The notes: generated from the letters alone by a model not told the origin. Counted from the first letter of the stretch, positions 1,876-18,735 are shown. The stretch: DNA of 21,118 nucleotides from Candidatus Komeilibacteria bacterium (GCA_024654345.1 JANLIN010000056.1:1-21118); one strand, 5' to 3'. Numbers and translations: made by a program.

Positions 1876-1947
1876 AATTCTCATCCTTTCTTTTTTTGTG
1901 AAATGAACGTGCTTTTGCTTATGACAATCATCTATAATATAAATGAC

Positions 1948-1980
1948 TCTGATAAGCAGGGAAAGGAGTTCCTTTCCCTG
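1948..1980. promoter_or_regulatory. Intergenic element TCTGATAAGC + 11-bp-arm palindrome CAGGGAAAGGA-GT-TCCTTTCCCTG between pncB and Nudix
   Basis: Inverted repeat at 1957-1980. Sister copy of the 1136-1170 element. Confidence 0.5.
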
Positions 1981-1985
1981 GAGAA

Positions 1986-3284
1986 TTAATAAACACAGGC
2001 CTCTTCAAACTTGTTCTCATAATGCACAAGTTTTTTATACCTGGCTATTTCGTCGGGATCGCCGGTGGCCTTGGCAATATTATCACTCAGCTTGACCAGC
2101 TTGCAACCATTCGCCTCTGTCGGCTTGATTACGATCGAGAGCGGATTTAGCCCCAGAAAATCGAAAGTAAGATTGGTACCCCAGCCATTACCAATATTTA
2201 TTAGTCGGGCGTACTTCTTATACAAACTGATCATGAGGGGAAGTTTTAGACCGTCGCTATAGAAAAGCGTCTTACGATTGCTATCAATCTTCCGTCGCTT
2301 GTAGTGAGCGATCACTTTTTCACTATATTGCGCCGGGTCACCCGAATCCTGTCGAAATCCCAGCCATTGCTGGAAATCATTGTCTTTCATATTATGAAAA
2401 AAATAATCACTTCCGTATGTGTCTGTCGGTGGCACCATGCGATCAAATCCGTACATCGCCAGCCAACGATCCATAAATTCACGCTGGGCTTGAGACAGAT
2501 CTCCACCCGCCGCCAATTTCAAACCGGCAATAACCATCTGCGGCTCATGTGCCGACGTACCGCGCGGTATCAGGGAATCTTCTTTGGCAATAAAGACATT
2601 GGACGTACCCTGGAAGTTTTCCGGTAGCGCTCTGGCCACAGTATTGGTAACATATCTCTGCCACTCGGGATGAAAAGCACGGCGCGTGCCAAAATCCACA
2701 AACGGCAATAAGTATGGATAATTCTGCTCTTCGGACCACTGATTTAGACTACGAAGATCGCTTATTTTTGCTTTCAGCCGCGCTATACCGTTCTTGATTA
2801 GAGATTCTTTTTGGGAAATCGTCATCTCCTTCAGCCACGCCTGGCAAGCCAACGCGTTCACTATCTGCAAGGCCGGTATTTCCCAGTACGTTGATTGCTT
2901 CCAAGCCTGTGAGAATTCCAGCTCTAGCTGTCCGTCCGGCGATATCTCCAAATTATAATCTGACCACTGGAAATTTTTCAGAAATTCCAGGTATCCCGTG
3001 GTATCTGACAGATTCTCACCCCTTACTATGTTACCGATATATGCCACCTCGGCCGCTGTCGGCAGTACTGTTTTGACGTGGTCGAGCTCTTCTTTCAATC
3101 GGCCAATATCTATCAAGCGCCCCAGCTTCACCGCCGTCGTCCGGTTGATAAAGCTGGAATTTGTCTCGACATCTCTGTACCATTTATGGATGAACTGCCC
3201 CATTGTAAATTTGTACATATCAGTCTGTAGAAAAGACTTAATTATCGGCTCGTCCACCGTTTTTAGGATTTTATCTACTATCAT
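1986..3284 (-). CDS. pncB: Nicotinate phosphoribosyltransferase
   Basis: 432 aa; the N-terminal FLQTDMYKFTMGQ matches the NAPRTase hallmark (TDxYKxTM). Length is typical. The start overlaps the upstream gene's stop (ATGA), indicating translational coupling. Confidence 0.8.
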   Translation of the reverse strand: MIVDKILKTVDEPIIKSFLQTDMYKFTMGQFIHKWYRDVETNSSFINRTTAVKLGRLIDIGRLKEELDHVKTVLPTAAEVAYIGNIVRGENLSDTTGYLEFLKNFQWSDYNLEISPDGQLELEFSQAWKQSTYWEIPALQIVNALACQAWLKEMTISQKESLIKNGIARLKAKISDLRSLNQWSEEQNYPYLLPFVDFGTRRAFHPEWQRYVTNTVARALPENFQGTSNVFIAKEDSLIPRGTSAHEPQMVIAGLKLAAGGDLSQAQREFMDRWLAMYGFDRMVPPTDTYGSDYFFHNMKDNDFQQWLGFRQDSGDPAQYSEKVIAHYKRRKIDSNRKTLFYSDGLKLPLMISLYKKYARLINIGNGWGTNLTFDFLGLNPLSIVIKPTEANGCKLVKLSDNIAKATGDPDEIARYKKLVHYENKFEEACVY

Positions 3285-4138
3285 TTTGCCACTCCTGTCT
3301 TGTCATGAATTTCTGTATAGAGAGAGGTGGAGAAGGCACAGTGTGGAGAAAGAATTTGTCGCGCAATGCTGGTAATTGTACCTGTCAAATAACTTGACAG
3401 AACTTTCCACTGATCAGCGCCGTCAATCATCCCTAGACGCGTCGCCACCAAATGTACTCTTTGTTCAAAAACAGCCACGGCATCTTCTATTTCACCTTTC
3501 GCGCCTAGTGCGGGCGGTCCCCCATTGGTTGATATAGTTCTTAACACGTTAACCGGCACGAAATGCTTCAATTTCTTAAAAACAGCGTCTATATCATGCA
3601 TGAAAGAATGCAAACGACCATTAGCGCCAATGAGAATATCCAAAGAGTCCATAAAACTATCGGCATAGCCAACCATACTGGCGGCCACATATACCGGGAC
3701 ATCATCGTCTTCGACGTACATCATAAAATGAGGGCAGCTGTGTCCTAAGTGAGGAATGTTCAGACGACGAGCCACTTCTATTGCAACCGCGTCCACACCC
3801 ATATTCGAAGCGCCATGCGCTATCCGTACGTCTATTCCGGGGAATTCGGTCTGAAGTACCCTGATGCAGTTCGCCAACAGCGATTTACAAGCTTCTTCGT
3901 AAGCTCCAACTTTTACACCCCAGACAGCGCACTGATCAGCCGATAGATGGCTATACCCATTCATTCCTAAGACTATCGTATCCTTGCCCTCCAGATGTTG
4001 CCTAGTGGCTTTTTCGTATTCTTCCGGAAAGAAGATCGGCTTGCGCGTAAAAATTCTTTTCCGCCCATTATATTCTACAACCACGCCTCCTTTGACTTTT
4101 TTAATGGATCCCAGTTTATCGGCCTTATTCTTTGCCAT
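3281..4138 (-). CDS. Conserved hypothetical Rossmann-fold protein, possibly SLOG-superfamily (DprA/LOG-like) nucleotide-processing enzyme, co-translated with pncB
   Basis: 285 aa starting at MAKNK, with a GTGAGG RBS 9 nt upstream; I prefer this start to the track's 4189 start. The segment RIAHGASNMGVDAVAIEVARRL resembles the DprA/SLOG glycine-rich Rossmann motif (SGxAxGxDxxAHxxAL). It overlaps the pncB start by 4 nt. Confidence 0.45.
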   Translation of the reverse strand: MAKNKADKLGSIKKVKGGVVVEYNGRKRIFTRKPIFFPEEYEKATRQHLEGKDTIVLGMNGYSHLSADQCAVWGVKVGAYEEACKSLLANCIRVLQTEFPGIDVRIAHGASNMGVDAVAIEVARRLNIPHLGHSCPHFMMYVEDDDVPVYVAASMVGYADSFMDSLDILIGANGRLHSFMHDIDAVFKKLKHFVPVNVLRTISTNGGPPALGAKGEIEDAVAVFEQRVHLVATRLGMIDGADQWKVLSSYLTGTITSIARQILSPHCAFSTSLYTEIHDKTGVAK

Positions 4139-4237
4139 AGTAAAAACCTCACTTCCTAAATTGTGTTTATTAATAATATTAATGTACATACTTCTTAAGA
4201 AGCTTGGTCCGAAATAGTTCAGACAAAACTTTTTAAG

Positions 4238-4271
4238 CGGGATAAGTGATGTTTAACATCGCCTTATCCCG
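4238..4271. promoter_or_regulatory. Nested hairpin CGGGATAAG-[TGATGTTTAACATCGC]-CTTATCCCG downstream of pncA
   Basis: 9-bp outer stem and an inner GATGTT/AACATC stem. It may be the pncA terminator or an attenuator; only a weak T-run follows. Confidence 0.4.
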
Positions 4272-4276
4272 AAATA

Positions 4277-4984
4277 CTAACCGATCAGTTCTCGGGTAGT
4301 CGTGAGTCTCACGCCAGCCGTTTTGAAAAACATATTCATTTCCTCATGACCCGCCTCGTCTCCCAAATCCTGCGTGGCATCTTTTACCACAGTCACCTGA
4401 TAGCCAAGGTCTGCTAAATCCAAAGCCGTCCAACCAACACAATAGCGATATACCAGCCCACAGACAAATATTTTTTTCGGGCGCATCTGCTTAATAATAG
4501 GTAAGAGGACTAGCTCACGTCCGGCATTGTCTCTCACGGCGCTATAAGAATCACGCGTCGGCTCCAATCCTTTCCTTACTACAACGCCATCGTATTCAGC
4601 AAAGGCCTGATGTTTTCCGGCTTCTTTACCTAGGCCATGATCCGGCCATAAGGTTTGATGATGAATTCTACGTAAGTAAAGTTTGAGATCATCGACGGTA
4701 AATTTAGCCTTTGGTCCTATTTTGCTATCTTCTTTCGTCCACTGCGCCACTTCCTCGTAGGTAAGCACGTAAAAATTCGGTAAGTCGACGTATGAACTGG
4801 CAAAAGATATATGACCAACCTCATGTACATCTAGCGTGAATACTCTCTTATCCTCCGGGAAAAGCGGTAGGATTCTCTTGATAGGTGCAATCACTTTGTC
4901 GCCACCTTGTACAGCTAATCCGCCACCCGGCATGAAAGTGAGAGTAGCATCTATCACCACCAGTGCGTCCTGTCTTCCTATCAT
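4277..4984 (-). CDS. pncA: Nicotinamidase (isochorismatase family, PncA)
   Basis: 235 aa. It has ALVVIDATLTF (catalytic Asp region), a metal-binding DVHEVGH (D-x-H-x3-H) and the catalytic Cys context FVCGLVYRYCVGWT. An AAGGAG RBS lies upstream. Confidence 0.75.
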   Translation of the reverse strand: MIGRQDALVVIDATLTFMPGGGLAVQGGDKVIAPIKRILPLFPEDKRVFTLDVHEVGHISFASSYVDLPNFYVLTYEEVAQWTKEDSKIGPKAKFTVDDLKLYLRRIHHQTLWPDHGLGKEAGKHQAFAEYDGVVVRKGLEPTRDSYSAVRDNAGRELVLLPIIKQMRPKKIFVCGLVYRYCVGWTALDLADLGYQVTVVKDATQDLGDEAGHEEMNMFFKTAGVRLTTTRELIG

Positions 4985-5059
4985 TGGCTTTCAGCTCCTT
5001 TCTGTTTAATCAATGAACTACACTCTTTAGCAATTAGAAACTCTGCTCCTGAAAAGCAG

Positions 5060-5088
5060 TGCTTATAGCTGTTAAAAAGCCTTGTCAA
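5060..5088 (-). promoter_or_regulatory. Putative sigma70 promoter for pncA (-35 TTGACA, -10 TATAAG or TAAGCA)
   Basis: On the minus strand, TTGACA (complement of 5083-5088) is followed 15-17 nt later by TATAAG/TAAGCA, about 80 bp upstream of the pncA start. Confidence 0.4.
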
Positions 5089-5120
5089 ATTCCGTAAAAA
5101 TTAACATTAAATAGAATTTA

Positions 5121-5157
5121 TGTCAACCCCAGTCATGTTTAACACGACCGGGGTTAA
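5121..5157 (-). terminator. Stem-loop downstream of the vWA gene (AACCCCAGTC...GACCGGGGTT, loop ATGTTTAACAC); possible terminator or regulatory hairpin
   Basis: A 10-bp stem with one G-U pair lies about 20 nt after the vWA stop. The T-run is imperfect. The loop shares the ATGTTTAACA core with the hairpin at 4238-4271. Confidence 0.35.
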
Positions 5158-5177
5158 CTTGAATGAAAAAAGTGCGT

Positions 5178-5966
5178 TTAGTTGCCGAAACCACCCATGG
5201 CGGCCTGGCTGAAATTGGCGGCTGATTGACTGGCGCGAACTGCCGATTGAGAGAAAAGCAGGAAGGCCTGGCGAATCTCTTTCTCTGTATTCTTCGGTGT
5301 CAGGATCCATTCATCAGGTATGCCCATGTCCGAGAATACCCGTTGGAAATCCGTACTACCATCATCAATGCCCATCGCTGCCACGATATGCATCTCTGTT
5401 TTTAACATGTCCTTCACCACCACCGCCACATCCTTGGCGCTGTACTTACGCGAGTGCTGATCACTGCCGTCGCTGATGATAAGCGTGATGGTGCGGGCCG
5501 GGACGCCATTGTCGGAGAATTCCTGCGCCTTGGCCAGAACAGTACCCAGTAGTACTATCGTCTGGTCATAGAGTGGGGTGCCCTGGTCAGGATTGTAGTT
5601 CTGAGTATCCATTATTTCCGCTTGTTCCACCATCGTGTACGGGTAAAGGATCTTCCCGTTTAGATAGCGATTATGCGCTAGTATATTGTCTTTCTGTTTA
5701 GAGGCGCGCAGGGAATTGAGTACCAGATTGTGACCGTTCCTGACCGCGGCGGCATTGCCGGCGAAACGGATAGACCCGGAATCATCCGGCATCATGCTTA
5801 CCAGTATTACCTCGCTGGCTTCAACATCGTCGACGGCCACGCCCAGCGCCGCCTGTATTTCGGCGCCGATATCCAGGACATTTAGTATCTGCTCAGATTG
5901 GGCGGACAGATTACCGTCTGCTTTGGCGTTGTTCACCAACTGACTTACTTTGCTTTGCTTGTTCAT
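5178..5966 (-). CDS. von Willebrand factor A (vWA) domain protein, TerY-like
   Basis: 262 aa from MNKQSK, with a strong AGGAGG RBS; I prefer this start to the track's upstream-extended 6128 start, which overlaps the previous gene. The MIDAS motif DDSGSI (DxSxS) and a second ISDGSD are present. The C-terminus has a Q/S-rich tail. Confidence 0.75.
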   Translation of the reverse strand: MNKQSKVSQLVNNAKADGNLSAQSEQILNVLDIGAEIQAALGVAVDDVEASEVILVSMMPDDSGSIRFAGNAAAVRNGHNLVLNSLRASKQKDNILAHNRYLNGKILYPYTMVEQAEIMDTQNYNPDQGTPLYDQTIVLLGTVLAKAQEFSDNGVPARTITLIISDGSDQHSRKYSAKDVAVVVKDMLKTEMHIVAAMGIDDGSTDFQRVFSDMGIPDEWILTPKNTEKEIRQAFLLFSQSAVRASQSAANFSQAAMGGFGN

Positions 5967-6042
5967 TTTGTGACCTCCTGGCTCCGACGATAGTGTCGAA
6001 GCCGTTTTTTGTGATTGAAAAATATTTTTCCGTGCTAGTGTC

Positions 6043-7086
6043 TTATAGATTGAGATCGGGCCAATCTTCCAAAGGTTGAGTCGTCTTGACGACATGCATG
6101 CCCGCCGCCGCAAAACGACGAAACGCATCGTCGGCTTGGTCGGTGAAATCTATAATACCCGGCACGACCACGGCGGAAGTACAATCTTCCAACAAGTAAA
6201 CCTTTTTGGCCAGTTCCGGATCGTGAGCTTGTATTTCATTGAGTAAGTCATCAATCGTCCAAGCCACGCAATGACTTTTGGCTTGGCCGGCAATGATAAC
6301 AGCGTCATATTTCATCAGCTTCTCAATAAAACGAGAATTACTCTGTGCGATCGGACGTCCGGTATGATCTTCCGTTATTTCCGGCTTCAAGACAGAATAA
6401 TTTTCTGTCAGTGGATTACCGCCTTTGATTTCGAAACCGGTTTGGCTGGTGCGTGCTAAATTGTGAAAGAAAACAGCTTCTTCGATAACCGCCGTCAGAG
6501 CGTGACCAATACCACCCAGCATGGCGTGGTAGGTCCAGATCATCAACGGATATTTTCCGTCTGCCGTCAGCTTGGCCACGTAGTGGCGCGCATATTTCTG
6601 CAGAAAGCTGTAACTACCGGTAATACTGTTGGCGATGGCGGGGTTTACTTTCCATATGCCCTTCTCAACATCCGTCAGCGTAATGATGGTTTGATTCCCG
6701 ATCGGATGTTCGCCCTGATCATTGATCCAAAACACCGGATGAAAGATTTGCATGGCGGTATGAGTGTCCATTGTCGGATCTATCTCTGTAATAACGCCTA
6801 GATAGCGATAGATGAATTCCGCCAATCGGACATTATCTTCGATGGCGCCCTTGCCACTGCGCCCCCCTACAAAAAGTTCAAAATCCGGGAGGCAGAAAGT
6901 ATTCTGCGCGTCTATTACCATCAAGCAGAGACGCGTCTTATCAACGGCGGCTTTCTTGATCTTGTGTTTGTCGGCCCATTCTCTGGCATCACGCGCCCGC
7001 TGTTCGTACGGAACTCTCCAGACACTATCGGCTTTGGACGCATCAAAGTGCTGAGGAATGGGTAATTCGTGGACTGATCTTTTCAT
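6043..7086 (-). CDS. Large nicotinamidase/isochorismatase-family amidase paralog
   Basis: 347 aa. Motifs are CLMVIDAQNTFC (catalytic Asp), DTHTAMQIFH (D-x-H-x6-H metal site as in nicotinamidases) and AGQAKSHCVAWTIDDL (catalytic Cys). About 150 extra residues lie between the metal site and the Cys relative to canonical ~190-aa enzymes. An AAAGGAG RBS lies upstream. Confidence 0.7.
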   Translation of the reverse strand: MKRSVHELPIPQHFDASKADSVWRVPYEQRARDAREWADKHKIKKAAVDKTRLCLMVIDAQNTFCLPDFELFVGGRSGKGAIEDNVRLAEFIYRYLGVITEIDPTMDTHTAMQIFHPVFWINDQGEHPIGNQTIITLTDVEKGIWKVNPAIANSITGSYSFLQKYARHYVAKLTADGKYPLMIWTYHAMLGGIGHALTAVIEEAVFFHNLARTSQTGFEIKGGNPLTENYSVLKPEITEDHTGRPIAQSNSRFIEKLMKYDAVIIAGQAKSHCVAWTIDDLLNEIQAHDPELAKKVYLLEDCTSAVVVPGIIDFTDQADDAFRRFAAAGMHVVKTTQPLEDWPDLNL

Positions 7087-7137
7087 GACTAATACTCCTT
7101 TCTAAGAGTTTTTTGTGAAGTTCGAAACTGTGTTTTT

Positions 7138-9003
7138 CTATGTTAAACGTAACAGATTTATTTCTCGACGCGATACCACGTAGAGCCCCTCTCGACCAGG
7201 ATGTAGATAAGACTGAGAGCTGACAAAGGGCTCGGTGTCAGGATACTCCTGCACGATCGCCAGGTTGTGGCCGCTTATACCAATCTTGAATATTCCTTCA
7301 TCGCTAGTCGAAAGTATTTTATCGCCGACCGGACATTTGCCGCGAATAGTACCAAGCCAACTACCATCGTCGGCTTCGGCGCTACCGATAGCGATAACGC
7401 TTCCGGCCGGCCCTATTACTTCGCACCGGTTAACGGTTTTGCCTTGAACGCGGCTACTGGTAAAAAACCAGGCGTTGTCAGCGACAAAAACAGTGGTGGC
7501 GTCGAGTAACTGACCCGTTATAGCGACCATATTTTTTACATCCTTCAATCCTTTCCGCTGATAATCAAACAAAAAGGTACGTCGGATTTCACCGGCCTGA
7601 TAAAATCCCAATCCCTGGTGTGCCCCGCTCCAAAGCAGAGTCTGATTGGATAAGGCCTGTCCCATGAATTCTTGGCCAAATTTTCCCCGGCGTAACAATT
7701 GTCCATTGTTGAGCCAAAACAGCCGGCCTGCACTGCTGTCAAACATCGGGATGTGGCGATAGTGATCCACGGCGTACTTGTTTTCTAGACGTTCCCGGTG
7801 GTATTCATGGATAACTCCGTTTAGACCCACCCAGGTAGTCTCGCCCCAGATCCGAAATCTGGCATTGGCGAAAGTTTCCGGAAAAGGTATTTTCCAACCC
7901 TCTTCTCTAACCAGTTGACCGTTTTCTCGGACCAGCCAGATTAGTCGCTCATTGTCAGTAGTAGCCTGGACAATCTGTCCTTTCGTCTGATAAAGACGAG
8001 TTGCCTTCACGGTACCGCGAATTACCGTTACCTCCCGGATAGCCGCCGGCGCCGCCGTACTACAAGTCGGACAGATGGATCGTGCGTGTTCCTGACCACA
8101 CTGCTGACAGGTAGTAAAACGGGTTAATTGCAGTAGTTTTTCCGGAAAGGGGTTTCTTTTGTCCTGGACAAATGTCTGATAAAAATAATCCAGCAAATCA
8201 TCAGAGAGAACACTGTAGTGAACCGCCGGCTTAGGATACTTTACTTCCGGATGAAAGACGGTAATCCGCTTGAGCGGACGTAGCTGATGGATTATTCGCT
8301 GTTTCTTGTCAGCCGGTCGGTAGATACCCCCATAAGGATCTACATACAGCAGACTATTCATCAGCATGACTGTAAAGGCATACCAATCCGAGGAGCTTGT
8401 AAACGGTTTGTATAGCTCGAGCGATTGGCGACGCGCGTCGGTCAGCAAAGGGTCAAGGAATTTGACAGTAAACATCCGACAAAGATAGCGTCCAAACTGA
8501 TAGCTGTCGGTATCTATCAGATAGGCTTGCTCATCTTTCACCAGAACATTCAAATCGTTAAAATCACCAACCACTACTTTCCTATCGTGCAAAGCCGAAA
8601 CAGCTTGGAGAAGCGAGCTGAATATTGTCAGTAGCGCGTTATTGTCCACTCTCCCCGGCCGGAACTTCTTGTCGCTGAAGCGCAACATTACTTCCGAGTC
8701 GGCAATGAGTGGCATACTGTAACCAACTATAAATCCCTTGCTATCTGACGCCAGTGCCACCGGTGCCACTATATTGGCCGGCAATCCAGCAGGAAAATCT
8801 GACAGTTTTGTTTGATGTTCCTCTAGCCTGTGCCGGGCCCCTTGTTGCTCCAGCGGCAGTCCGCGCAAATCGGGATGATGGGGAGACTTAAAAATTTTAA
8901 GTGCCAGTTTATCGTTTAGTCGATAAATATCGGCTTCTCCGCCCTTGCCAATGGCTTGCGCGGGAGTGATATTTATCGGATTGCCGGCTAAATAGATTTT
9001 CAT
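7138..9003 (-). CDS. Ser/Thr protein kinase-like protein with central zinc ribbon and C-terminal beta-propeller-like repeats
   Basis: 621 aa. It has a glycine-rich loop IGKGGEADIY, a Lys in ALKIFK, a catalytic loop HDRKVVVGDFNDLNVLV and LIDTDS (DFG-like). CQQCGQEHARSICPTC forms a CxxC...CxxC ribbon. Repeated W/G-rich blades follow. A GGAGG RBS lies upstream. The start overlaps the PP2C stop (ATGA). Confidence 0.7.
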   Translation of the reverse strand: MKIYLAGNPINITPAQAIGKGGEADIYRLNDKLALKIFKSPHHPDLRGLPLEQQGARHRLEEHQTKLSDFPAGLPANIVAPVALASDSKGFIVGYSMPLIADSEVMLRFSDKKFRPGRVDNNALLTIFSSLLQAVSALHDRKVVVGDFNDLNVLVKDEQAYLIDTDSYQFGRYLCRMFTVKFLDPLLTDARRQSLELYKPFTSSSDWYAFTVMLMNSLLYVDPYGGIYRPADKKQRIIHQLRPLKRITVFHPEVKYPKPAVHYSVLSDDLLDYFYQTFVQDKRNPFPEKLLQLTRFTTCQQCGQEHARSICPTCSTAAPAAIREVTVIRGTVKATRLYQTKGQIVQATTDNERLIWLVRENGQLVREEGWKIPFPETFANARFRIWGETTWVGLNGVIHEYHRERLENKYAVDHYRHIPMFDSSAGRLFWLNNGQLLRRGKFGQEFMGQALSNQTLLWSGAHQGLGFYQAGEIRRTFLFDYQRKGLKDVKNMVAITGQLLDATTVFVADNAWFFTSSRVQGKTVNRCEVIGPAGSVIAIGSAEADDGSWLGTIRGKCPVGDKILSTSDEGIFKIGISGHNLAIVQEYPDTEPFVSSQSYLHPGREGLYVVSRREINLLRLT

Positions 9004-9824
9004 GTTATTCCCCTCCTTTCCGGACCGACCTTTCGTATGACAACCAGGGTGGTGTCATCAGTTAGGTGGCCATTTTGCACTTCCATCCGGCTCTCCTGCC
9101 AGAGTGGCCGACTAACGTCGCGGTTAACCAACGTAAGCTGACGACGAACACTGTCCGGATTCTTGAAATACCGATCTTCCGTCCAGAAATTCAGCAACGG
9201 ACCGACTTCTCTGTCCTGACCGGGCACGATTTTATTGGCCGCCGCTACATAATCACCAATACCGTCAGTGGCTATCAACAGATGAGAAATGGCCGCCGTT
9301 TTTTCCTGCACCTTCATCTGCCACATAAACCGCTGATCCATGGGTTGAAATAGACCATAAGCGATGTAGGGTGGCTGATTGTCAGAAAATGGTCCGAGGG
9401 CGATATAATTGTCATTGCAGACAATTAAACCGTCACCGATTGCCGCTATGACCAGTCTATCTTCGTGGATTACCGCCGCGATAGCGGTGAATAGACCGTA
9501 GTCCTCGATGAATCTATTGGCGCCGCTAGGGTTGGGTCGTGTCAGCCAATACAACTCACGTAAAACATCCAAGCGCACGGTATCCCAGTACCGCGTGGAG
9601 CTGATATTCAGAGACAAATTTCTTTTCAGGCTGTTGGCTATCAGCTGAGCACCCAACTTGGCGCCAACTTCACTGCCGGGACTACTGCCACAACCGTCTG
9701 TCACAACGGCGATGATACTGTCATTGCCAGGCAAGATGCAGAAGGCGTCTTGATTGTTACGACCAGATTGCCGATGGTGACGTCCGATGACACTACCGCC
9801 GGCTATTTCAAACAAATCTTTCAT
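9000..9824 (-). CDS. PP2C-family Ser/Thr protein phosphatase
   Basis: 274 aa. Motifs are GRHHRQSGRNNQDAF (R-x-x-NQD), VVTDGCGSSPGSEVGAKLG (DGxGG...G) and LIATDGIGD (second metal-binding Asp). An AAGGAG RBS lies upstream. Confidence 0.75.
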   Translation of the reverse strand: MKDLFEIAGGSVIGRHHRQSGRNNQDAFCILPGNDSIIAVVTDGCGSSPGSEVGAKLGAQLIANSLKRNLSLNISSTRYWDTVRLDVLRELYWLTRPNPSGANRFIEDYGLFTAIAAVIHEDRLVIAAIGDGLIVCNDNYIALGPFSDNQPPYIAYGLFQPMDQRFMWQMKVQEKTAAISHLLIATDGIGDYVAAANKIVPGQDREVGPLLNFWTEDRYFKNPDSVRRQLTLVNRDVSRPLWQESRMEVQNGHLTDDTTLVVIRKVGPERRGIT

Positions 9825-9932
9825 GTTTATCTCCTTTTATGTATGTAGTTTTCAAAGATCTGGAACGCCTATCTCTTAGAGAAAGGATTCTACGTCAACC
9901 CGGAGTCTGGCCGAGCTGACGTTGAACTCTTT

Positions 9933-9961
9933 CTTAGTGTTAAATATACACTTACTAATAT
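9933..9961. repeat. Copy A of a ~27-bp direct repeat CTTAGTGTwAAwATATACAC..TA.TA flanking nrtR (palindromic core GTGTTAAATATACAC)
   Basis: It matches 10661-10689 in the same orientation at about 24 of 27 positions. It lies between the nrtR stop and the PP2C-kinase operon start. Confidence 0.5.
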
Positions 9962-9981
9962 GTAAAAAATTTTCTGTTTTT

Positions 9982-10659
9982 TTACAAAATATTAACCACT
10001 GCCAGAGATCGACTGGTAAATTCAAATAATGCCGCCGGCCGATTGGCCTCACCCCTTCTCTTCTTGCCGGTGGTCTTCACCAATCCTAACGACCCGACTT
10101 TTTTGCGAAAATTTCGCTTGTCGATCTCCTGATCCAAAATTATCTCGTATACTTTCTGTAATTCCGACAAAGTAAACTGCCGGGGTAACAAACTGTAAAC
10201 TATGTTGGTATAGCCGAGCTTGGAGCGCAGTCTCTTTACACCCGTCTTTAATATTTCCGCATGATCGTAAGCCAGCGCAGGTAGCTTGGCCACCGGCCAC
10301 CAACGCACGTCCGCGTATTCGGCGGTAGTCTTTAACATCAAACTTTTATCATACGGTAATAATGCGTAGTAGGCGACGGACAATACTCGACCGTAGGGAT
10401 CTCTTTTTTCCCCGCCAAAAGCATATAGCTGTTCCAAGAAAATATCAGACACGCCGGTCTTGGCCTGAAGGTGGCGACGCGCGGCTTTCTCGACTGATTC
10501 GCTGATTTTAACCATGCCGCCCGGCAAAGCCCATTTTCCTTGATAAGGCTTCTTTTTCATCTTTATCAACAGAACGTTGAGCGCCTCGCCTCGCAGGCTG
10601 AAAATAACCACATCCGTGGCGGCGGCGACAAATTTGAATTTTTGATAAGGTTTACTCAT
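9982..10659 (-). CDS. nrtR: NrtR-family Nudix-related transcriptional regulator of NAD metabolism
   Basis: 225 aa. The N-terminal Nudix fold has GKWALPGGMVKISESVEKAARRHLQAKTG. The C-terminal winged-helix region has FTLSELQKVYEIILDQEIDKRNFRKKV, typical of NrtR. It is located inside an NAD salvage cluster. Confidence 0.65.
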   Translation of the reverse strand: MSKPYQKFKFVAAATDVVIFSLRGEALNVLLIKMKKKPYQGKWALPGGMVKISESVEKAARRHLQAKTGVSDIFLEQLYAFGGEKRDPYGRVLSVAYYALLPYDKSLMLKTTAEYADVRWWPVAKLPALAYDHAEILKTGVKRLRSKLGYTNIVYSLLPRQFTLSELQKVYEIILDQEIDKRNFRKKVGSLGLVKTTGKKRRGEANRPAALFEFTSRSLAVVNIL

Positions 10660-11997: not shown

Positions 11998-12027
11998 AAA
12001 GAGCTGTTTTTAAAAAACAGCTCTTCT
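11998..12027. terminator. Bidirectional rho-independent terminator (AAAGAGCTGTTTT/AAAACAGCTCTTT palindrome flanked by A- and T-runs)
   Basis: Perfect 13-bp inverted repeat with T-runs on both sides. It sits between the convergent genes 11417..11995 (+) and 12031..12861 (-). Confidence 0.7.
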
Positions 12028-12030
12028 TTT

Positions 12031-12861
12031 TTATTTATTATAACTTCCTCCTACGCTCATCACAGGTGAGGTATAAGAGATTTCTCCATATCTGGTGGAA
12101 AATAGTTTTTTTACTTTAAGCAAATGAAACAAATTGCCAATGACATTGCCCCGAAGCATACAACGCCGTTCACGACCTATCCCTCTTTCTTCTATCGCTA
12201 AGTCTTTAACACTTGCGTAACTGATGTGATAAAAAATTGTTTCTAAATTTACTTTTTCATTCTGTGCATCCTCTTCTGACTTACATTGAATTTCAAAAGT
12301 AAACAGTCCTTTTTTATTGGCAATCCGAGACTCAGCATTGATTGGCAATTCTTTTTTCTTAGCAAATACCGCCCCCAATCCATAGGCACCCAAAGTAAGC
12401 AAGGAGTATGGTATAAACTCCGATAGTGATGAAGCTTGATCAAATTGAGGGGAAAGAGAGATAGCTAAGACAAGAAAACTCACCAAAAGTGTGACACCAT
12501 TATTCAATTTAGTTGCCATTCTCCCAGCCGCAAACGCCAGTATCAAGTAGGGCCAATCAATTGCCACAACAAGAGGCGTCTGCGCAAATAATTGCTGATA
12601 GATCGGCGAGGATGAAACTACTAATGAATCACTCACTGCGGTTGAATCAACTGCGCTAACAGCCTCCGTCGTTCCGGCAACCAATCTTTCGCCATTTTCA
12701 TAAACATACACAATAATATCTGCCGCTACATCTAATATAATCCCCAAAAATACACTCTTTAACAAAACCCAAACGCTAACCAAGATCACTGAAAAAGAGG
12801 TATATCTTAAGCTGTAAACAGTTGCCAAACACCAGAGCCAGAAAATTTTTAGTCTATCCAT
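12031..12861 (-). CDS. Integral membrane protein (N-terminal multi-TM region plus C-terminal soluble domain), partner of the poly-zinc-ribbon protein
   Basis: 277 aa from MDRLKIF, with an AGGAGG RBS; the upstream gene's TAA lies between the RBS and ATG. I prefer this start to the track's 12975 start. Several hydrophobic helices are present. Confidence 0.6.
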   Translation of the reverse strand: MDRLKIFWLWCLATVYSLRYTSFSVILVSVWVLLKSVFLGIILDVAADIIVYVYENGERLVAGTTEAVSAVDSTAVSDSLVVSSSPIYQQLFAQTPLVVAIDWPYLILAFAAGRMATKLNNGVTLLVSFLVLAISLSPQFDQASSLSEFIPYSLLTLGAYGLGAVFAKKKELPINAESRIANKKGLFTFEIQCKSEEDAQNEKVNLETIFYHISYASVKDLAIEERGIGRERRCMLRGNVIGNLFHLLKVKKLFSTRYGEISYTSPVMSVGGSYNK

Positions 12862-12862
12862 T

Positions 12863-14200
12863 TTAATCCTCCTTATAATGTCCCACCTTACAGTGCGGGC
12901 ACAGTGTATATTCGATATCGCTCTCACACCAAGGACAGCTGTTTGTATCCTTATCAATAATAATAAGCTTGCCACAATCTTCGTTTGGACAAGGAGCTTT
13001 TAGCAACCCCGCTTCACAATGAGGACAGTCAGTCGCATCTGCCCAAATTAAACCGTCACAAACCGGACAACTTACTTCAACTAATGCTTTAGAACAAGTT
13101 GGACATTTTGTCTCATATGTCAAGTCTTCCTCCAAATAATGGTCGCTCCGCTTGCACAGATACAGATCTGCATTACATTCCGGACATTCCTTGTCACCAT
13201 CTATAATGACCGAATCACCACAAGAAGGGCATGGTGTTCTCTTCACCTCCGTGCCGCACTTGGAACATTTTTCCTCATCCTCATACATATCCTCGTCACA
13301 CTTTGGACAACTGTCTGGGTTGAGACTCTTAAGACAATTGGGACACGTTCCGCCATCTTCAGGATCTTGAGTTATATATTTTTTACATCGAGGACATACG
13401 TACAACGCAGAACCACACGCCGGACAGTCCTTATCTCCGTTAATAAATATATTACTAGTGCATTCCGGACATTTAGTTAGCTCCAGTTTTGTGTTGCAAT
13501 GACCACATTGACTCGAATCGGCATAAATACTAGTGCAGCAATTTGGACAAGAATCATATCTATATGTTCTTTGACAAGAAACGCACTCATCCAGTATATC
13601 CGGATTAACCGCGATAAATTCGTGACATCGCGGACAATTATACACGTCGCTGAGACAACTACCACACCGCATTTCGTTTATATCTTCTGGCGATAACATC
13701 TTTTCACAAGCAGGACATTCTTTTCTCCTATTCTCTGGCACAAAAACATCTCCTGGAATTACAGGTTCAGAATCATCATCGTAAACCCCATGGTTTCCTT
13801 GTAACTCATATTCATGCTCTTTCGATTCTCCGACATCTGGCGCAGCCCAAGGCATCTTCCACACTTCATCACTACCACTGACATATATCACGCTGTCAAA
13901 TCTTATATCCGGAAATTGCGTCGCCAGGCTATATAGCATCTGCTTTTTTTGATCATAGCCCCAGTGCTTTTCAAATTTGAAATCCGCACGTAGTTTTCCT
14001 AGCTGTTTCGAGAAAACAAAGAGTGACTTGTCCGGAAGCTCTATCACTACCTTAGAAACACCACCCAGAACCACTTTCTCCAAACGGCCTTCCATATCTT
14101 CCAATGGGTCTGACTGTGCCACTTCAGGCAAAGCGCCCTTAATAAAGTAACTTAGGATAGAGGTCACTAATCCAGGTATTGATGCTAGTACTTCTTTCAT
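12863..14200 (-). CDS. Poly-zinc-ribbon protein: ~140-aa Cys-free N-terminal domain followed by ~10 tandem CxxC-x(7-14)-CxxC zinc-ribbon modules
   Basis: 445 aa with repeated CPxC...CxxC units (CPACEK..CGSC, CPRC..CVSC, CPNC..CGHC, CPEC..CPAC, CPRC..CPNC, CPKC..CSKC, CPSC..CPEC, CPTC..CPVC, CPHC..CPNEDC, CPWC..CPHC). A GAGGT RBS lies upstream. A TTGACA-17-TAGATT promoter lies on the minus strand at about 14248-14276. Confidence 0.7.
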   Translation of the reverse strand: MKEVLASIPGLVTSILSYFIKGALPEVAQSDPLEDMEGRLEKVVLGGVSKVVIELPDKSLFVFSKQLGKLRADFKFEKHWGYDQKKQMLYSLATQFPDIRFDSVIYVSGSDEVWKMPWAAPDVGESKEHEYELQGNHGVYDDDSEPVIPGDVFVPENRRKECPACEKMLSPEDINEMRCGSCLSDVYNCPRCHEFIAVNPDILDECVSCQRTYRYDSCPNCCTSIYADSSQCGHCNTKLELTKCPECTSNIFINGDKDCPACGSALYVCPRCKKYITQDPEDGGTCPNCLKSLNPDSCPKCDEDMYEDEEKCSKCGTEVKRTPCPSCGDSVIIDGDKECPECNADLYLCKRSDHYLEEDLTYETKCPTCSKALVEVSCPVCDGLIWADATDCPHCEAGLLKAPCPNEDCGKLIIIDKDTNSCPWCESDIEYTLCPHCKVGHYKED

Positions 14201-14247
14201 TTTTACCTCATTTCTATATTGTTTTTAAATAGCCGTATTAATAGCCA

Positions 14248-14333
14248 AATCTATCCTAAAATTCTCCGCGTGTCAATAGAGAGTGAAAGTTATCCCCAGC
14301 AAACCATTGACAAAACTCAATTTATGTTATAGA
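14248..14333. promoter_or_regulatory. Divergent promoter region: minus-strand TTGACA-17-TAGATT (for the ZnR operon) and plus-strand TTGACA-15-TGtTATAGA extended -10 (for 14375..)
   Basis: The minus-strand -35 is the complement of 14271-14276 and the -10 the complement of 14248-14253. The plus-strand -35 is at 14307-14312, with TG at 14325-14326 and TATAGA at 14328-14333. Confidence 0.5.
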
Positions 14334-14374
14334 ATTCAGAATTGAATATTTATACATTAAAAAAGGAATAAAAA

Positions 14375-14875
14375 ATGGATTTTTCATTAGTCCCACTCTA
14401 TTTCATCCTCTTTGCAGTAATTGCTTTACCAATATTTATCCAAGTTAAAAAGCGCTTACTCATGGGTGACAGCTCGAACCATCAAAAAAAAGGTCTAGAG
14501 CACTCTGAATCCACTACTGGTGAGTCCAGAGCTCTATTACTCAATAAAAGGTTCAGCGAATTACTAAATGCGAAAGCTGACCCCATAGCAACGAAAGGCT
14601 TTAGGGATAGTACGATCAATTTGATAGATGGTAAGATTGTCAAGTGGAGTGATCTTGATTTCTCTGAGGAAATTTTAAATGACTTAGTAAGATTATCGCA
14701 AGTTCAGTGGTGCAAAGATATAATAAAAAAGATCCAATGCGATGAGGATTATTCTTCCGCTGATTACCCCAATTTCATTGAGTTAATTGATCTTCATGTT
14801 AGTAACGGAACTACCACCTGGCAAGAGCTTGGTATAAGCAAAGAGGAATTGAACCGGGTGTTGAATGAAAATTAA
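14375..14875 (+). CDS. Hypothetical protein with N-terminal transmembrane helix (166 aa)
   Basis: AAGGAA RBS; hydrophobic N-terminus LVPLYFILFAVIALPIFI. AT-rich. First gene of a two-gene unit upstream of pspA. Confidence 0.5.
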   Translation: MDFSLVPLYFILFAVIALPIFIQVKKRLLMGDSSNHQKKGLEHSESTTGESRALLLNKRFSELLNAKADPIATKGFRDSTINLIDGKIVKWSDLDFSEEILNDLVRLSQVQWCKDIIKKIQCDEDYSSADYPNFIELIDLHVSNGTTTWQELGISKEELNRVLNEN

Positions 14876-15200
14876 AGTAAATCACAATTCCGCACCGGAG
14901 AAGATCGCTGAAAAAATTCCGAGCGGAATCATGAAAATCATAGATAATGTGGGCAATACAGAAGTCACAGTTAGTGACATTCTATACGATTTAAAAGGCA
15001 CTCGCCTCAATTTTTCCTTCAAAGCTAGCTATGATGAACACTGTGTGTCAGTCAAAGGTAAGATGGATATTCTAAGAAATTGCGTTATCATGAATATAAA
15101 CTTACCAATGGTAGCACTTTTGTTCGTTAAAAGTGATGAAATCAAAAAAGTCATCACGAAAAAGCTAATTGAATTCATTCAAAACGAAGAAGCGGTTTAA
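14865..15200 (+). CDS. Hypothetical small protein (111 aa), start overlaps the previous stop
   Basis: The ATG overlaps the stop of 14375..14875, indicating translational coupling. A terminator follows. Confidence 0.45.
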   Translation: MKIKVNHNSAPEKIAEKIPSGIMKIIDNVGNTEVTVSDILYDLKGTRLNFSFKASYDEHCVSVKGKMDILRNCVIMNINLPMVALLFVKSDEIKKVITKKLIEFIQNEEAV

Positions 15201-15218
15201 AAATCGCTTCTTTTTTTC
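15189..15218 (+). terminator. Rho-independent terminator GAAGCG-loop-CGCTTC followed by TTTTTTT
   Basis: The stem overlaps the stop codon region of 14865..15200. A 7-T run follows. Confidence 0.6.
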
Positions 15219-15227
15219 AAATCCTTA

Positions 15228-15256
15228 TTGACATTAGCCTATATGTGTGCTAAGAT
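15228..15256 (+). promoter_or_regulatory. Sigma70-like promoter TTGACA-17-TAAGAT upstream of pspA
   Basis: Perfect -35 with 17-nt spacer, about 80 bp upstream of the pspA ATG. The same TTGACA-17-TAAGAT architecture occurs at 20040-20068 on the minus strand. Confidence 0.55.
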
Positions 15257-15338
15257 TGCTTATTAAATTATGATCGGACTTTAAAAAAAATAAACACCTA
15301 ATATTAGGCAAATTCATCAACAGTAACAGGAGGTTACA

Positions 15339-16166
15339 ATGGCTCTTCGAAAGAGAAGATGGTACCAAATTTTCGGCTTAATCGCGGATATGTTCAGAAA
15401 TGCAATATCTGATAATATCTCCGACGATATTAAGCTGGAATCAGATGCTCGTCAAATGATGGCCGGATTAGAACAAATGTCCAATCTGGTCTCCTACAGC
15501 ATGACCATGGCTGATAATAAATACAAGGAACTTGCACTGAAGGTGCAAAATTATCAGAGCCTTCAAGCTCAAGCTCAGAAGTTCTTAGAGCAGGGCAAAG
15601 AAGAAATGGCGCGTCGCTGCGTTGCCTTAAAACAGCAAGCGGCTACAGATATTGAAACGCTGAAAAGCGACTATGTTACTCTTCAGCAAGACGCCGAAGA
15701 CAAAGTGGCTCGTTTCAAATCGGAAAAGAGAAAAGTGGATACAAGACTTAGGGAATTACCGCGTTTGAAACAGGATGTCAAGCTGATCCAGCAGCAGAAG
15801 GAAATTGATAAAACTTTTTCCACTCTTAGCCTCGAGAGCCCGAGTTCATCTTTTGATGAGATAGCGGGCGAAATAGGCATGAAAAAGGGTCAGCTTCAAA
15901 ACAAGCGACTCTTAGAGGGGGATCCGACTGCTGCTATTGACAATGCCATAGTCAATCAATTACAGGAAGATAATATTAACCAGGAGATGGCTCGGCTACG
16001 TCAGAAAATTAATGCTCCCACTATTGAAGATGCAGAATATACGGAAGTAAATGATCCCAACCTTGGTGAAGCGTTAAATTTGCTGGAAAAGCCACGCTTT
16101 GGAAATATTCCCGATACAAATATTCGCGGCGCCAACGTCCACAATGAACAGAAAAAGGAGGAATAG
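15339..16166 (+). CDS. pspA: PspA/IM30/Vipp1-family (ESCRT-III-like) membrane-stress protein
   Basis: 275 aa coiled-coil protein. The N-terminus RRWYQIFGLIADMFRNAISDNISD parallels the PspA [23 protein letters not shown]. A central LESPSSSFDEIAGE parallels the PspA ALSGISSSSAMSAFERMEEKI. The RBS is AGGAGGT. Confidence 0.7.
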   Translation: MALRKRRWYQIFGLIADMFRNAISDNISDDIKLESDARQMMAGLEQMSNLVSYSMTMADNKYKELALKVQNYQSLQAQAQKFLEQGKEEMARRCVALKQQAATDIETLKSDYVTLQQDAEDKVARFKSEKRKVDTRLRELPRLKQDVKLIQQQKEIDKTFSTLSLESPSSSFDEIAGEIGMKKGQLQNKRLLEGDPTAAIDNAIVNQLQEDNINQEMARLRQKINAPTIEDAEYTEVNDPNLGEALNLLEKPRFGNIPDTNIRGANVHNEQKKEE

Positions 16167-16168
16167 AC

Positions 16169-16870
16169 ATGAACTGGCAGGATCTATTAGAATGGCAAAA
16201 TCTTATTTTTGCCCTTCCTTTTGTCGGAGCTTTGTTTTATTTAGTATTATTGGCTACTGGTACCTTCTCGGCCGATCATGACATAGACCATGACATAGAC
16301 CATGACATAGACCATGACATAGACCATGACATAGACCATGATCATGGCATAGAACACACTCATGATGTCAGCGGCTTTATGAAGGCTCTAACTCTACTAG
16401 GTCTCGGCAAGGTACCACTCTCGATCTTATTGACCACCTTTTTCATCACATTTGGCTTCTTTGGACTTGTAGCAAATGGAGTTCTTCAAAAAATCCTAGT
16501 CTTTCCGATAGTGTATCTGTGGGTATCACTTGCTACCACTCTATTCCTATCAATCATCTTCACTCGCTCAATAGCGATCGGGTTGGCCAAAATTCTACCG
16601 ACGACTGAAACTTATGCTTCAAAGCCGGGAGATTTGATCGGCCTAGGCGGAGAAATAATCTACACCGCCACCGAGTTCAGCGGAACATGTGATGTTTACG
16701 ATAAGTATAACACTCTGTTACGCAAGCAGTGCCGCATAAAAAAGGGAAATGAGCCCATTCCTCCAGGGAAGAAAGTAGTCCTTCTGGAATACGATGAGGC
16801 TAATGGCGAATACATTGTATCTGAAAATAACTTAATGGAATCTATCACATCACAATCACAGGAGGTATAG
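16169..16870 (+). CDS. NfeD/YqiJ/YuaF-like membrane protein (flotillin-associated) with N-terminal (DHDI)n His/Asp-rich repeat and C-terminal OB-fold-like domain
   Basis: 233 aa with AGGAGG RBS. TM helices flank a DHDIDHDIDHDIDHDIDHDIDHDHGIEHTHD tract. The C-terminal beta-rich domain follows. It sits immediately upstream of flotillin, with a 2-nt gap. Confidence 0.6.
   Translation: MNWQDLLEWQNLIFALPFVGALFYLVLLATGTFSADHDIDHDIDHDIDHDIDHDIDHDHGIEHTHDVSGFMKALTLLGLGKVPLSILLTTFFITFGFFGLVANGVLQKILVFPIVYLWVSLATTLFLSIIFTRSIAIGLAKILPTTETYASKPGDLIGLGGEIIYTATEFSGTCDVYDKYNTLLRKQCRIKKGNEPIPPGKKVVLLEYDEANGEYIVSENNLMESITSQSQEV
16274..16348 (+). repeat. In-frame 12-bp tandem repeat (CATGACATAGAC) x5 perfect plus degenerate flanking copies, encoding (HDID)n
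   Basis: Five identical contiguous 12-mers at about 16277-16336, with diverged copies on each side. Confidence 0.85.
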
Positions 16871-16872
16871 TA

Positions 16873-18735
16873 ATGGAACATCATACAAAAAAGAATTCCG
16901 GCGGTCTTATGGGGGTCGTCGCAGTACTATTCGGTCTCGCCTTCATAATCCTGCCCCTGATGTTCAGTGAGGCAGTCACAGGCACAGCGCAAGTTATTTT
17001 AACATCGTTCGGCGTTCTCCTGCTACTCACGGGCGGCATAGTGGTAACTATCACCAAGCTCTACGTCAAAACGTCGGCTAATGAGGCCTTCGTTCGAACA
17101 GGTATGGGGGGTGAAAAGACTATAATTTCCGGCGGTGCCCTTGTTCTTCCGGTCGTTCACAACATTATCTGGGTTTCGTTGGAAACAATGAAACTAGTAG
17201 TGAAAAGAACTGGTGCAACAGCTTTGATTTGCGGCGATAAATTGAGAGCTGATGTTGTCTCAGAATTCTACATAAAGATAGAAAGAGATGCTCAATCAGT
17301 GCAGTCGGCAGCTACCTCCCTTGGCGGCAGATCAGTTAACGGGGATAGCATTAAGGAGCTGGTGGAAGAAAAATTCGTCTCAGCTCTGCGTACTGTATCT
17401 TCAACAATGGAATTGATGGACTTACATCAAAACCGCGCCAAATTCGCTGGCGATGTCCAAGCAATAGTTAGTAAGGATCTCGCGCCAAACGGATTGACCT
17501 TGGAAACAGTGACAATATCTACCTTGGATCAAACACCGGTCAATTCTATGCAATCCGGCGAGAACATATTCGATGCTCAGGGAGCAAGAAAAGTTGCAGA
17601 AATCGTTGAAAGCCAACGCGTTGCTACAACTAAAATCAAAACCAAAGCTGATCAGGACGTTAAATCCGAAGAGGTTACTCGCGATAAATTCATCTTTGCC
17701 CAGGAATATGAAGCAGCTAAAGCTGAAGCTGAGCGCGATGCCTTAATAAAGAAGGTACAGGCAGAGCAAGAGCAAGAAGCTGCTACCGTTACCGCACAGC
17801 AGGAAGAGAAGACTGGAATTGCACAGGTGAAGAAAGAGGAAAACATTGCTCTAGCCGGTGTTACAAAAGAAAAGAACCTTGAAGTAGCTAACAAACAACG
17901 CGAGCAGGCTGCTGAAACCGCGGACATCGAAAAGCAGAAAGCAGTTGAATTGGCAGCGCAGGATAAAGAAATCGCTGTTGCCGGTAAAGAAAAGGAAAAA
18001 GCAGAGGCTCAAAAGTTGAAATTTGATGCTGAAGCCCTCGAAGAAGAATCAAGACAGTCGGTCAGGACAGTAACCGAAGTTGAAACTGCTGACCGTGCCA
18101 AGAAGACAGCTATCATAGCAGAGGAAGCGGAAGCCGCCAAATCCAAGGTAAAAGAAAATACAAAGGCGGATGTAGACGCATATACAGTAACAAAAAAAGC
18201 CTCTGCCGATATGGAAGCGGCCGAAAACAAGGCGCAGGCTATTAGAACTCAGGCACAGGCTGATAGAGACGCCAAAGTTGCCGAAGCTGAAGGTAAAAAA
18301 GCTCTGGAAATGATTCCGGTTGAAGTTGAAGGCGCCCGCGTAGAAGTTCGTCAAAAGGACGTCGAAGTAACAGGCACTGAACTGAAATACAAGGCTGAGC
18401 ACCAGGAAATTTCCAAGGAATTGGAAATAGCGTTAGCCAATATTGCGAAGGATAAAGAAATAGGAGTTGCCAAAGCTCAGGCTCTGGGTCAGGCACTTAG
18501 CTCAGCTAACATGCAAATCTGGGGAGATAGCAATATGATGAGCACTATTACCAAATTGTTTACAAATGGTCAGGCAGGAGCCGCCGCTGTTAACGGTTTT
18601 ATGAGCCAACTTGACGAAGAAGGTGAAAATGTCCTCGTGATATTAAAGACCTTAGTTGAAAAGTTTGGCCATAAACTTGGCGACAAAGCCAAAGCCAAAA
18701 TAACTGACGTTATCAGTGAAACAGTAAAAAAGTAA
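16873..18735 (+). CDS. Flotillin-like SPFH/band-7 protein with N-terminal membrane anchor and long E/A/K-rich coiled coil
   Basis: 620 aa with AGGAGG RBS. N-terminal TM helices are followed by an SPFH-like region (VRTGMGGEKTIISGGALVLPVVHN...). A flotillin-type EA-repeat coiled coil spans about 300 aa. A C-terminal globular tail follows. Confidence 0.75.
   Translation: MEHHTKKNSGGLMGVVAVLFGLAFIILPLMFSEAVTGTAQVILTSFGVLLLLTGGIVVTITKLYVKTSANEAFVRTGMGGEKTIISGGALVLPVVHNIIWVSLETMKLVVKRTGATALICGDKLRADVVSEFYIKIERDAQSVQSAATSLGGRSVNGDSIKELVEEKFVSALRTVSSTMELMDLHQNRAKFAGDVQAIVSKDLAPNGLTLETVTISTLDQTPVNSMQSGENIFDAQGARKVAEIVESQRVATTKIKTKADQDVKSEEVTRDKFIFAQEYEAAKAEAERDALIKKVQAEQEQEAATVTAQQEEKTGIAQVKKEENIALAGVTKEKNLEVANKQREQAAETADIEKQKAVELAAQDKEIAVAGKEKEKAEAQKLKFDAEALEEESRQSVRTVTEVETADRAKKTAIIAEEAEAAKSKVKENTKADVDAYTVTKKASADMEAAENKAQAIRTQAQADRDAKVAEAEGKKALEMIPVEVEGARVEVRQKDVEVTGTELKYKAEHQEISKELEIALANIAKDKEIGVAKAQALGQALSSANMQIWGDSNMMSTITKLFTNGQAGAAAVNGFMSQLDEEGENVLVILKTLVEKFGHKLGDKAKAKITDVISETVKK

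Follow-up and report, generated by a model that had tools for sequence, protein, structure and literature searches.

A recent in-frame 12-nt tandem array in the disordered TM1-TM2 loop of a flotillin-associated YqiJ-family protein, a proposed cation-binding element

The window, a stretch of 21,118 nucleotides from Candidatus Komeilibacteria bacterium (GCA_024654345.1, JANLIN010000056.1:1-21118), contains a perfect 12-nt tandem array inside a gene of the YqiJ family (233 aa; 16169..16870, plus strand). The array is best explained as a young VNTR, made by slippage, in a disordered loop between the first two transmembrane helices (TM1 and TM2) of the protein, where the encoded His/Asp tract would form a cytoplasmic cation-binding brush beside flotillin; the probability of this reading was put at approximately 0.6.

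The array was located by TRF at 16277..16341 (plus strand), and its 65 bp comprise 5.4 copies of CATGACATAGAC with a period of 12, no indels, 100% matches and a score of 130, compared to scores of about 30 for each of the remaining tandem repeats of the window. The run of matches at a lag of 12 was 53 in the array, as opposed to 12 elsewhere in the window and to a mean of 9.5 (maximum 14) in 500 first-order Markov simulations. The codons of the array in ORF 16169..16870 were GAT-CAT-GAC-ATA (D36-I39), GAC-CAT-GAC-ATA four times and GAC-CAT-GAT-CAT, giving ADHDIDHDIDHDIDHDIDHDIDHDHGIEHTHD, or (DHDI)5 followed by DHDH, in the fuller context A-(DHDI)5-DHDH-GIEHTHD. By translation with the codon table, the full His/Asp tract, (DHDI)5-DHDH-GIEHTHD, extends from D36 to D66 (16274..16366, plus strand); of its 31 residues, 9 are His and 14 are Asp/Glu. 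The initial annotation had described a perfect, in-frame 12-bp repeat in five copies, which both TRF and the reading of the codons bear out; the interval that it gave, 16274..16348, is slightly wider than the array, taking in a synonymous mismatch (GAT) on the 5' side and, on the 3' side, a few bases that do not belong to the repeat.

The DHDI units share the codons GAC-CAT-GAC-ATA, save for the GAT that opens unit 1. GAC is the minor Asp codon of the window (34%) and ATA accounts for 31% of its Ile codons, and with this codon usage the probability of identical codons across the five DHDI units, given the peptide, was approximately 1.4e-5. Codon identity at this level (P ~1e-5) argues for recent duplication and not for selection at the peptide level, and the array is a recent in-frame duplication. 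An earlier claim of recent expansion is thereby upheld for the duplication itself and not for a net expansion of the loop: the TM1-TM2 spacing of the window protein (W9-G78) is 69 residues, against a median of 73 (range 52-113) in its nearest relatives, which points to turnover or homogenisation of units without net lengthening. The array begins 108 nt 3' of the start codon, inside the ORF, and since its unit equals four codons the reading frame is kept at any copy number. The initial view that length would vary rather than an ON/OFF state agrees with this, and a phase-variable ON/OFF contingency locus was rejected, because an ORF-internal 12-nt unit shifts neither the frame nor the promoter spacing.

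Coding VNTRs are recognised by (near-)perfect head-to-tail in-frame units, and such units, in 5.4 copies of 100% identity, are what the window gene contains. The array resembles in this respect the bacterial coding VNTRs that arise by slipped-strand mispairing, and the YqiJ family as a whole resembles them in showing length differences at the same site between close relatives. In contrast to the coding VNTRs of surface antigens and adhesins, however, the array belongs to a scaffold partner in the inner membrane, in a loop that is probably cytoplasmic.

The host protein was matched by the Pfam family YqiJ_N (PF21001) with an E-value of 1.5e-11 and 44.9 bits against a cutoff of 23; the match of residues 16-133 to profile positions 2-116 of 116 places the loop within the model. 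An AF2 model of the host, built from 36 homologues, had a mean pLDDT of 84. It comprised, all on the plus strand, TM1 (residues 9-29; 16193..16255), a TM1-TM2 loop that holds the tract and is disordered by secondary structure and pLDDT (residues 30-68; 16256..16372), a TM2-TM3 hairpin (residues 84-142, with helices 84-109 and 113-142; 16418..16594) and an NfeD-like OB barrel (strands 160-219; 16646..16825) followed by a terminal helix. A short helix was predicted after the loop, at residues 69-76, and pLDDT fell below 50 within the tract over residues 37-45 and 51-66. The initial placement of the tract between TM helices is confirmed by the model, in which it lies between TM1 and TM2. The model also contains the 3-TM N-terminal region and the soluble C-terminal β-barrel that define the YqiJ family, and it fits the description '3TM YqiJ/YuaF' (PMC11237479).

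When the model was compared to the PDB with Foldseek, the only matches at E <=1e-3 were 3cp0 (an NfeD C-terminal domain; E 3e-4, TM 0.81, rmsd 2.5), 3wwv (the NfeD C-terminal domain PH1510-C; TM 0.81 on the target) and 8z5g_AA, which is YbbJ of the E. coli QmcA-YbbJ SPFH-NfeD complex. The Pfam scan of the host gave no match to the NfeD family at E <=0.01, and the relationship to NfeD, as judged from the predicted structure, is visible at the fold level only, in keeping with what has been described for YqiJ/YuaF (PMC2636767). Describing the host as NfeD-like, as had been done initially, is thus appropriate for the modelled fold (3cp0, 3wwv and YbbJ), while by sequence the protein belongs specifically to the YqiJ/YuaF branch (PF21001), the members of which Hinderhofer et al. 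regard as remote homologues of NfeD that pair with SPFH proteins of the flotillin type (PMC2636767).

Several features bear on the side of the membrane on which the tract lies. The TM2-TM3 hairpin puts the loop and the OB domain on the same side; OB domains of NfeD proteins bind SPFH domains; the cage formed by QmcA-YbbJ is on the cytoplasmic side (Tan 2024, as cited in PMC13086221); and the N-terminus of the window flotillin is basic and followed by two hydrophobic segments, which indicates a cytoplasmic SPFH domain. Taken together, the hairpin, the analogy to QmcA-YbbJ and the flotillin N-terminus make a cytoplasmic location of the tract most likely, and the few Lys/Arg residues that flank TM2 and follow TM3 agree with a cytoplasmic loop side.

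Translational coupling links the YqiJ gene to a PspA-like gene on its 5' side and to a flotillin gene on its 3' side. The upstream gene (15339..16166, plus strand) encodes a coiled-coil protein of 275 aa that is weakly PspA/IM30-like (PspA_IM30 E 1.6e-4 and 21.8 bits, below the cutoff of 33.9; TIGR02977 E 3.5e-4). Its stop codon (16164..16166) ends 2 nt before the YqiJ ATG, and a Shine-Dalgarno sequence GGAGG for YqiJ, read directly, is found 7 nt 5' of that ATG (16157..16161, plus strand). The downstream gene (16873..18735, plus strand) encodes a flotillin/SPFH protein of the YqiK/FloT type (620 aa; Band_7 E 6e-15, FloT model E 2.8e-12), starts 2 nt past the YqiJ stop codon and has its own Shine-Dalgarno sequence GGAGG (16861..16865), so that the partnership with flotillin presumed in the initial annotation is reflected in adjoining genes. 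Among 24 related genome loci searched by tblastn, the YqiJ-flotillin pair was kept in all that extend far enough downstream, and a PspA-like gene beside YqiJ was not detectably conserved in these 24 loci. Operons of PspA, flotillin and YqiJ-YuaF, often with polyamine-metabolism genes, have been reported by Ravi et al. (PMC11237479), who also describe CesT/Tir-like chaperones that accompany PspA in operons of this type. Directly 5' of the PspA-like gene, two small ORFs of 166 and 111 aa, overlapping by 11 nt (14375..15200, plus strand), had no Pfam or NCBIfam match and may be part of the operon.

The remainder of the window includes an NAD-salvage cluster on the minus strand (1177..10659), with a NUDIX gene (1177..1884), an NAPRTase gene (1986..3284), an isochorismatase/nicotinamidase-like gene (4277..4984), an NrtR regulator gene (NUDIX plus winged helix; 9982..10659) and several interspersed ORFs without a Pfam match. 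A gene for a PP2C phosphatase (9000..9824, minus strand) overlaps by 4 nt with that of a 621-aa protein that matches a protein kinase only weakly (E 1e-4, short of the Pfam cutoff), and the two, spanning 7138..9824, could form a divergent Ser/Thr kinase-phosphatase pair. Three double-zinc-ribbon stretches occur in a 445-aa protein encoded at 12863..14200 (minus strand); the gene of this protein is overlapped by 113 nt by an ORF at 12031..12975 (minus strand) that had no Pfam match and the start of which is probably mis-assigned. The G+C content drops from approximately 0.48 at 1-10 kb to 0.37-0.43 across 12000..17000, a region that covers the operon of PspA-like, YqiJ and flotillin genes and the genes upstream of it, and which may be an acquired island.

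Relatives of the window were distant in all collections searched. The best identity to the YqiJ protein was 45% among 5.8 billion proteins and 44% among GTDB representatives, and JGI metagenomes yielded one locus, at 28% identity. A scan of IMG/VR gave no match, nor did a phage and plasmid megablast with the window, and exact-sequence look-ups of the YqiJ and flotillin proteins gave no record. For the NAPRTase of the window, best identities were 42-45%, to scattered MAGs of CPR/Patescibacteria and Chloroflexi.

Homologs of the YqiJ protein were collected by two types of search. In a word-indexed protein search, which produced 219 matches (best identity 45%), nearly every protein listed carried (D-H-D-φ)n at the corresponding place; of 106 sequences that could be anchored (the window and 105 homologs), 87 had at least three DHD motifs, with a median His+Asp content of 51%, a median length of 60 and φ being V, I, L, A or M. 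A word-indexed search favours shared words such as DHDID and may therefore enrich for tract-bearers, and because of this bias the search was repeated, index-free and with the tract removed, using residues 66-233 against 1.84 billion representatives, which resulted in 899 matches at E <=1e-3. Out of 135 matches that were N-terminally complete, 74 and 43 contained at least one and at least two DHD motifs, respectively, and 79 contained an alternating-acidic run of at least four. The loops from the index-free search were 23-150 residues long, with medians of 12% His, 23% Asp+Glu and 4% Lys+Arg. Less than 3% His was found in approximately 11 of 101 family loops (about 1 in 10), which kept their acidic residues; these low-His loops are typified by (D-A/V)n, the acids often alternating with small or hydrophobic residues, and some loops of the family are Gly/His-rich with little Asp.

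That all homologs carry (DHDx)n was rejected, given the heterogeneous loops returned by the index-free, tract-free search. The hallmark of the family is instead a disordered, length-variable, acidic and/or His-rich, Lys/Arg-poor TM1-TM2 loop, of which (DHDφ)n is one common flavour, and the tract is an ancient hallmark of the family and not a novelty of the window gene. Acidic, His-rich, Lys/Arg-poor loops occurred in Desulfobacterota, Latescibacterota, Armatimonadota, Patescibacteria, Planctomycetota and Chloroflexota. When 44 unique sequences of one clade were aligned from the right flank of the tract, the D columns were ~85-100% Asp and the H columns ~80-93% His, while the φ columns contained a mixture of I, L, V, M, A and F. 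The conservation of D and H columns next to drifting φ columns indicates purifying selection on specific positions.

Loop length was found to turn over quickly in the family, through indels in multiples of 6 nt. Among 1005 close pairs (>=70% identical outside the loop), loop length differed in 881, and the differences were even numbers of residues in 1003; most of these pairs belong to a single clade and so do not count as independent, although at least eight distinct lengths share the parity. The even-length rule could result from a mutational bias, through the 6-nt sub-periodicity of GAY-NNN, and not from selection. The homologs P0062 and P0103, for example, are 99% identical outside the loop and differ by 10 residues in loop length, and their DNA, ~90% identical over this stretch, is set apart by an indel of 6 nt and another of 24 nt within the tract. 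Orthologs thus carry the tract at varying length, so that it is neither invariant in copy number nor absent from them, the two outcomes that had been named beforehand as arguing against the initial interpretation.

Long exact peptide arrays were present in the TM1-TM2 loop of only two others among 263 family members, P0211 (VDHDLDHD x4.4) and P0177 (VEAHGEAD x6.9). Both are tandem arrays at the DNA level as well: locus L029 has a 24-nt array of 9.0 copies (96%; 2630..2846) encoding DLDHDVDH, followed by a Band_7 gene, and locus L030 has a 24-nt array of 6.9 copies (96%; 15..180) encoding VEAHGEAD. These two arrays arose independently, in the same loop of distant YqiJ homologues. In 25 other fetched loci, TRF detected imperfect repeats of 18-33 nt or none in the tract. 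The array in the window is a recurrent process of the family, caught at an unusually fresh stage.

Directly after the array comes a non-repetitive element, HGIEH (H59-H63; 16343..16357, plus strand), which is common to the closest subfamily only. The form HG[IVL]E[HQ] was present in P0001, P0003, P0005, P0007, P0008, P0009 and P0124, and its frequency in the wider family was 7 of 120 and 9 of 143 members; HG[IV]EH as a general motif of the family was consequently rejected, being confined to a small subfamily. Read as H-x-x-E-H, HGIEH matches the spacing of the inverted zinc-binding motif.

The proposed sequence of events is that slippage duplicated in-frame 12-nt units within the intrinsically disordered TM1-TM2 loop, and that the units would have been homogenised or duplicated in one recent round of turnover, the length of the loop remaining ordinary. 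The copy number of the array is predicted to be polymorphic in the population, with changes in length only and the gene never switched off. The host would act as a 3-TM partner of the YqiK/FloT-type flotillin, with an NfeD-like OB fold, and its loop would be a flexible brush, polyanionic and studded with His, at the cytoplasmic surface of the membrane, beside or under the flotillin assembly. Such a putative brush could bind cations, either divalent metals via His/Asp or protons via His, or both, and the number of units would tune its cation capacity and its reach.

Metal binding by the tract is plausible, by analogy with His-rich loops of known metal transporters. The sole PDB sequence match of the tract was the His-rich loop of the CDF protein ZnT7 (8j7t; E 0.007, weak and compositional), and its sole NCBIfam match was the His-rich loop of the Ni/Co exporter RcnA (over residues 37-65 of the host; E 0.003), at 16.8 bits against a model cutoff of 195. 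Neither match was accepted as homology, both being weak, compositional and far below curated cutoffs, and the Pfam scan of the host gave no match to a transporter core (Cation_efflux, NicO/RcnA or Zip). The loops of ZnT7, RcnA and ZIP-family proteins are similar to that of the host in being disordered His/Asp loops of variable length between TM helices, but the host has neither the transporter core of those proteins nor homology to them, and in their (HX)n loops His recurs every two residues, compared to every four in D-H-D-φ. His at positions i and i+4 fits the classical His-X3-His geometry of helical chelation. The low-His loops of about one in ten family members imply that metal chelation by His is not the common denominator of the family, and with both low-His loops and Gly/His-rich, Asp-poor loops in the family, one ligand chemistry does not suit all of its members. 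When the flotillin that partners a DUF1449 protein was deleted in Shewanella, free iron fell and sensitivity to H2O2 rose, and the authors of that study offered the speculation that the YqiJ-like protein acts as a metallochaperone (PMC1468410). Flotillin oligomers are stabilised by NfeD proteins (PMC11222466). It is conceivable, as a tentative extension drawn from these analogies and one that we consider rather doubtful, that the loop is a conserved, length-tunable cation-binding module, many copies of which would make a high-capacity surface for metals or protons under the membrane enclosed by flotillin.

The host resembles YqiJ of E. coli and YuaF of B. subtilis (NfeD2-type, ex-DUF1449) in its match to PF21001, its three TM helices and its C-terminal OB barrel. 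To our knowledge, the His/Asp loop is vestigial or missing in these two characterised proteins; with little or no tract there, the tract is apparently not essential for the core NfeD-flotillin interaction. The position of the host gene directly 5' of flotillin is likewise that seen in yqiJK and yuaFG (PMC2636767, PMC11237479). What sets the host apart from known members of the family is an identity of at most 45% and a 31-residue tract with an array that is perfect at the nucleotide level. Short NfeD proteins, such as YbbJ in QmcA-YbbJ (8z5g) and the S. aureus NfeD that accompanies FloA, are similar in having an OB C-domain, a membrane anchor and an SPFH operon partner, and in being expected to stabilise SPFH oligomers (PMC11222466; Tan 2024, as cited in PMC13086221). 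Their SPFH partner is however stomatin-like, whereas that of the host is a flotillin, and no acidic/His loop has been described in them. For the TM1-TM2 loop of YqiJ itself, no published description was found in the literature.

The disorder predicted by AF2 would suit a neutral low-complexity spacer, in which the loop has only to be flexible, hydrophilic and non-basic, slippage of GAY-rich DNA perpetuates the His/Asp composition and periodicity, and neither the array nor its variation in length matters for function. A spacer of this kind could accommodate the span of loop lengths (23-150 residues), the different compositions ((DHDφ)n, (DADV)n and Gly/His-rich) and the fresh arrays built from different units in different lineages. 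The acidic, His-rich, Lys/Arg-poor composition is nevertheless kept across very distant phyla, and the conserved D and H columns of the 44-sequence clade, set against drifting φ columns, are unlike a decaying microsatellite. We regard a neutral spacer as possible, with a minor share of the probability. Unlikelier is a role at the level of charge or pH in place of a transition-metal site, in which the alternating-Asp brush with its titratable His senses acidification of the cytoplasm or loss of PMF, or has as its ligands Mg2+, polyamines or basic patches on flotillin or the PspA-like protein, and so would couple assembly of the complex to envelope stress. The cytoplasm holds little free transition metal, and a cytoplasmic site, as argued for above, favours H+, Mg2+ or polyamines as ligands; the near-His-free loops stay Asp-rich, which makes polyanionic charge the more general property. 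The translational coupling to the PspA-like gene and the polyamine-metabolism genes found with PspA/flotillin/YqiJ-YuaF operons (PMC11237479) point in the same direction, but the failure to detect conservation of the PspA-like gene in the 24 related loci does not, and the His content (20% here, against the family median of 12%) exceeds what a purely polyanionic role would need.

Explanations at the level of nucleic acid (iterons, mRNA structure or a phase switch) and an assembly artefact are very improbable. Five perfect 12-mers do look like iteron arrays, and CATG palindromes would permit some RNA pairing, but the peptide pattern is kept throughout the family with different codons and different units. 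The fold z-score of the RNA was -1.8, with 7 of 200 shuffles folding equally well, and a 12-nt unit without frame shift is at odds with a phase switch. As for an artefact, the 65 bp of the array are shorter than a typical read of 100-150 bp, and unambiguous assembly would be expected if the source was short-read sequencing.

Under the preferred reading, a young VNTR in a putative cation-binding loop of YqiJ, the locus taken alone is an ordinary in-frame length variant and at most a strain-typing marker for an unrepresented lineage. The regularities of the family, namely a conserved D/H framework, indels that keep to a two-residue register and fresh arrays that recur, are a lead for work on flotillin and NfeD. 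The function of the bacterial flotillin-NfeD pair is still debated, and a cation-binding loop would make the link to free iron and oxidative stress testable. If the loop is indeed a length-tunable cation-binding module, it would be a direct link between flotillin microdomains and metal (for example, iron) homeostasis or PMF sensing, and slippage in a strict two-residue register would be an evolutionary tuning knob.
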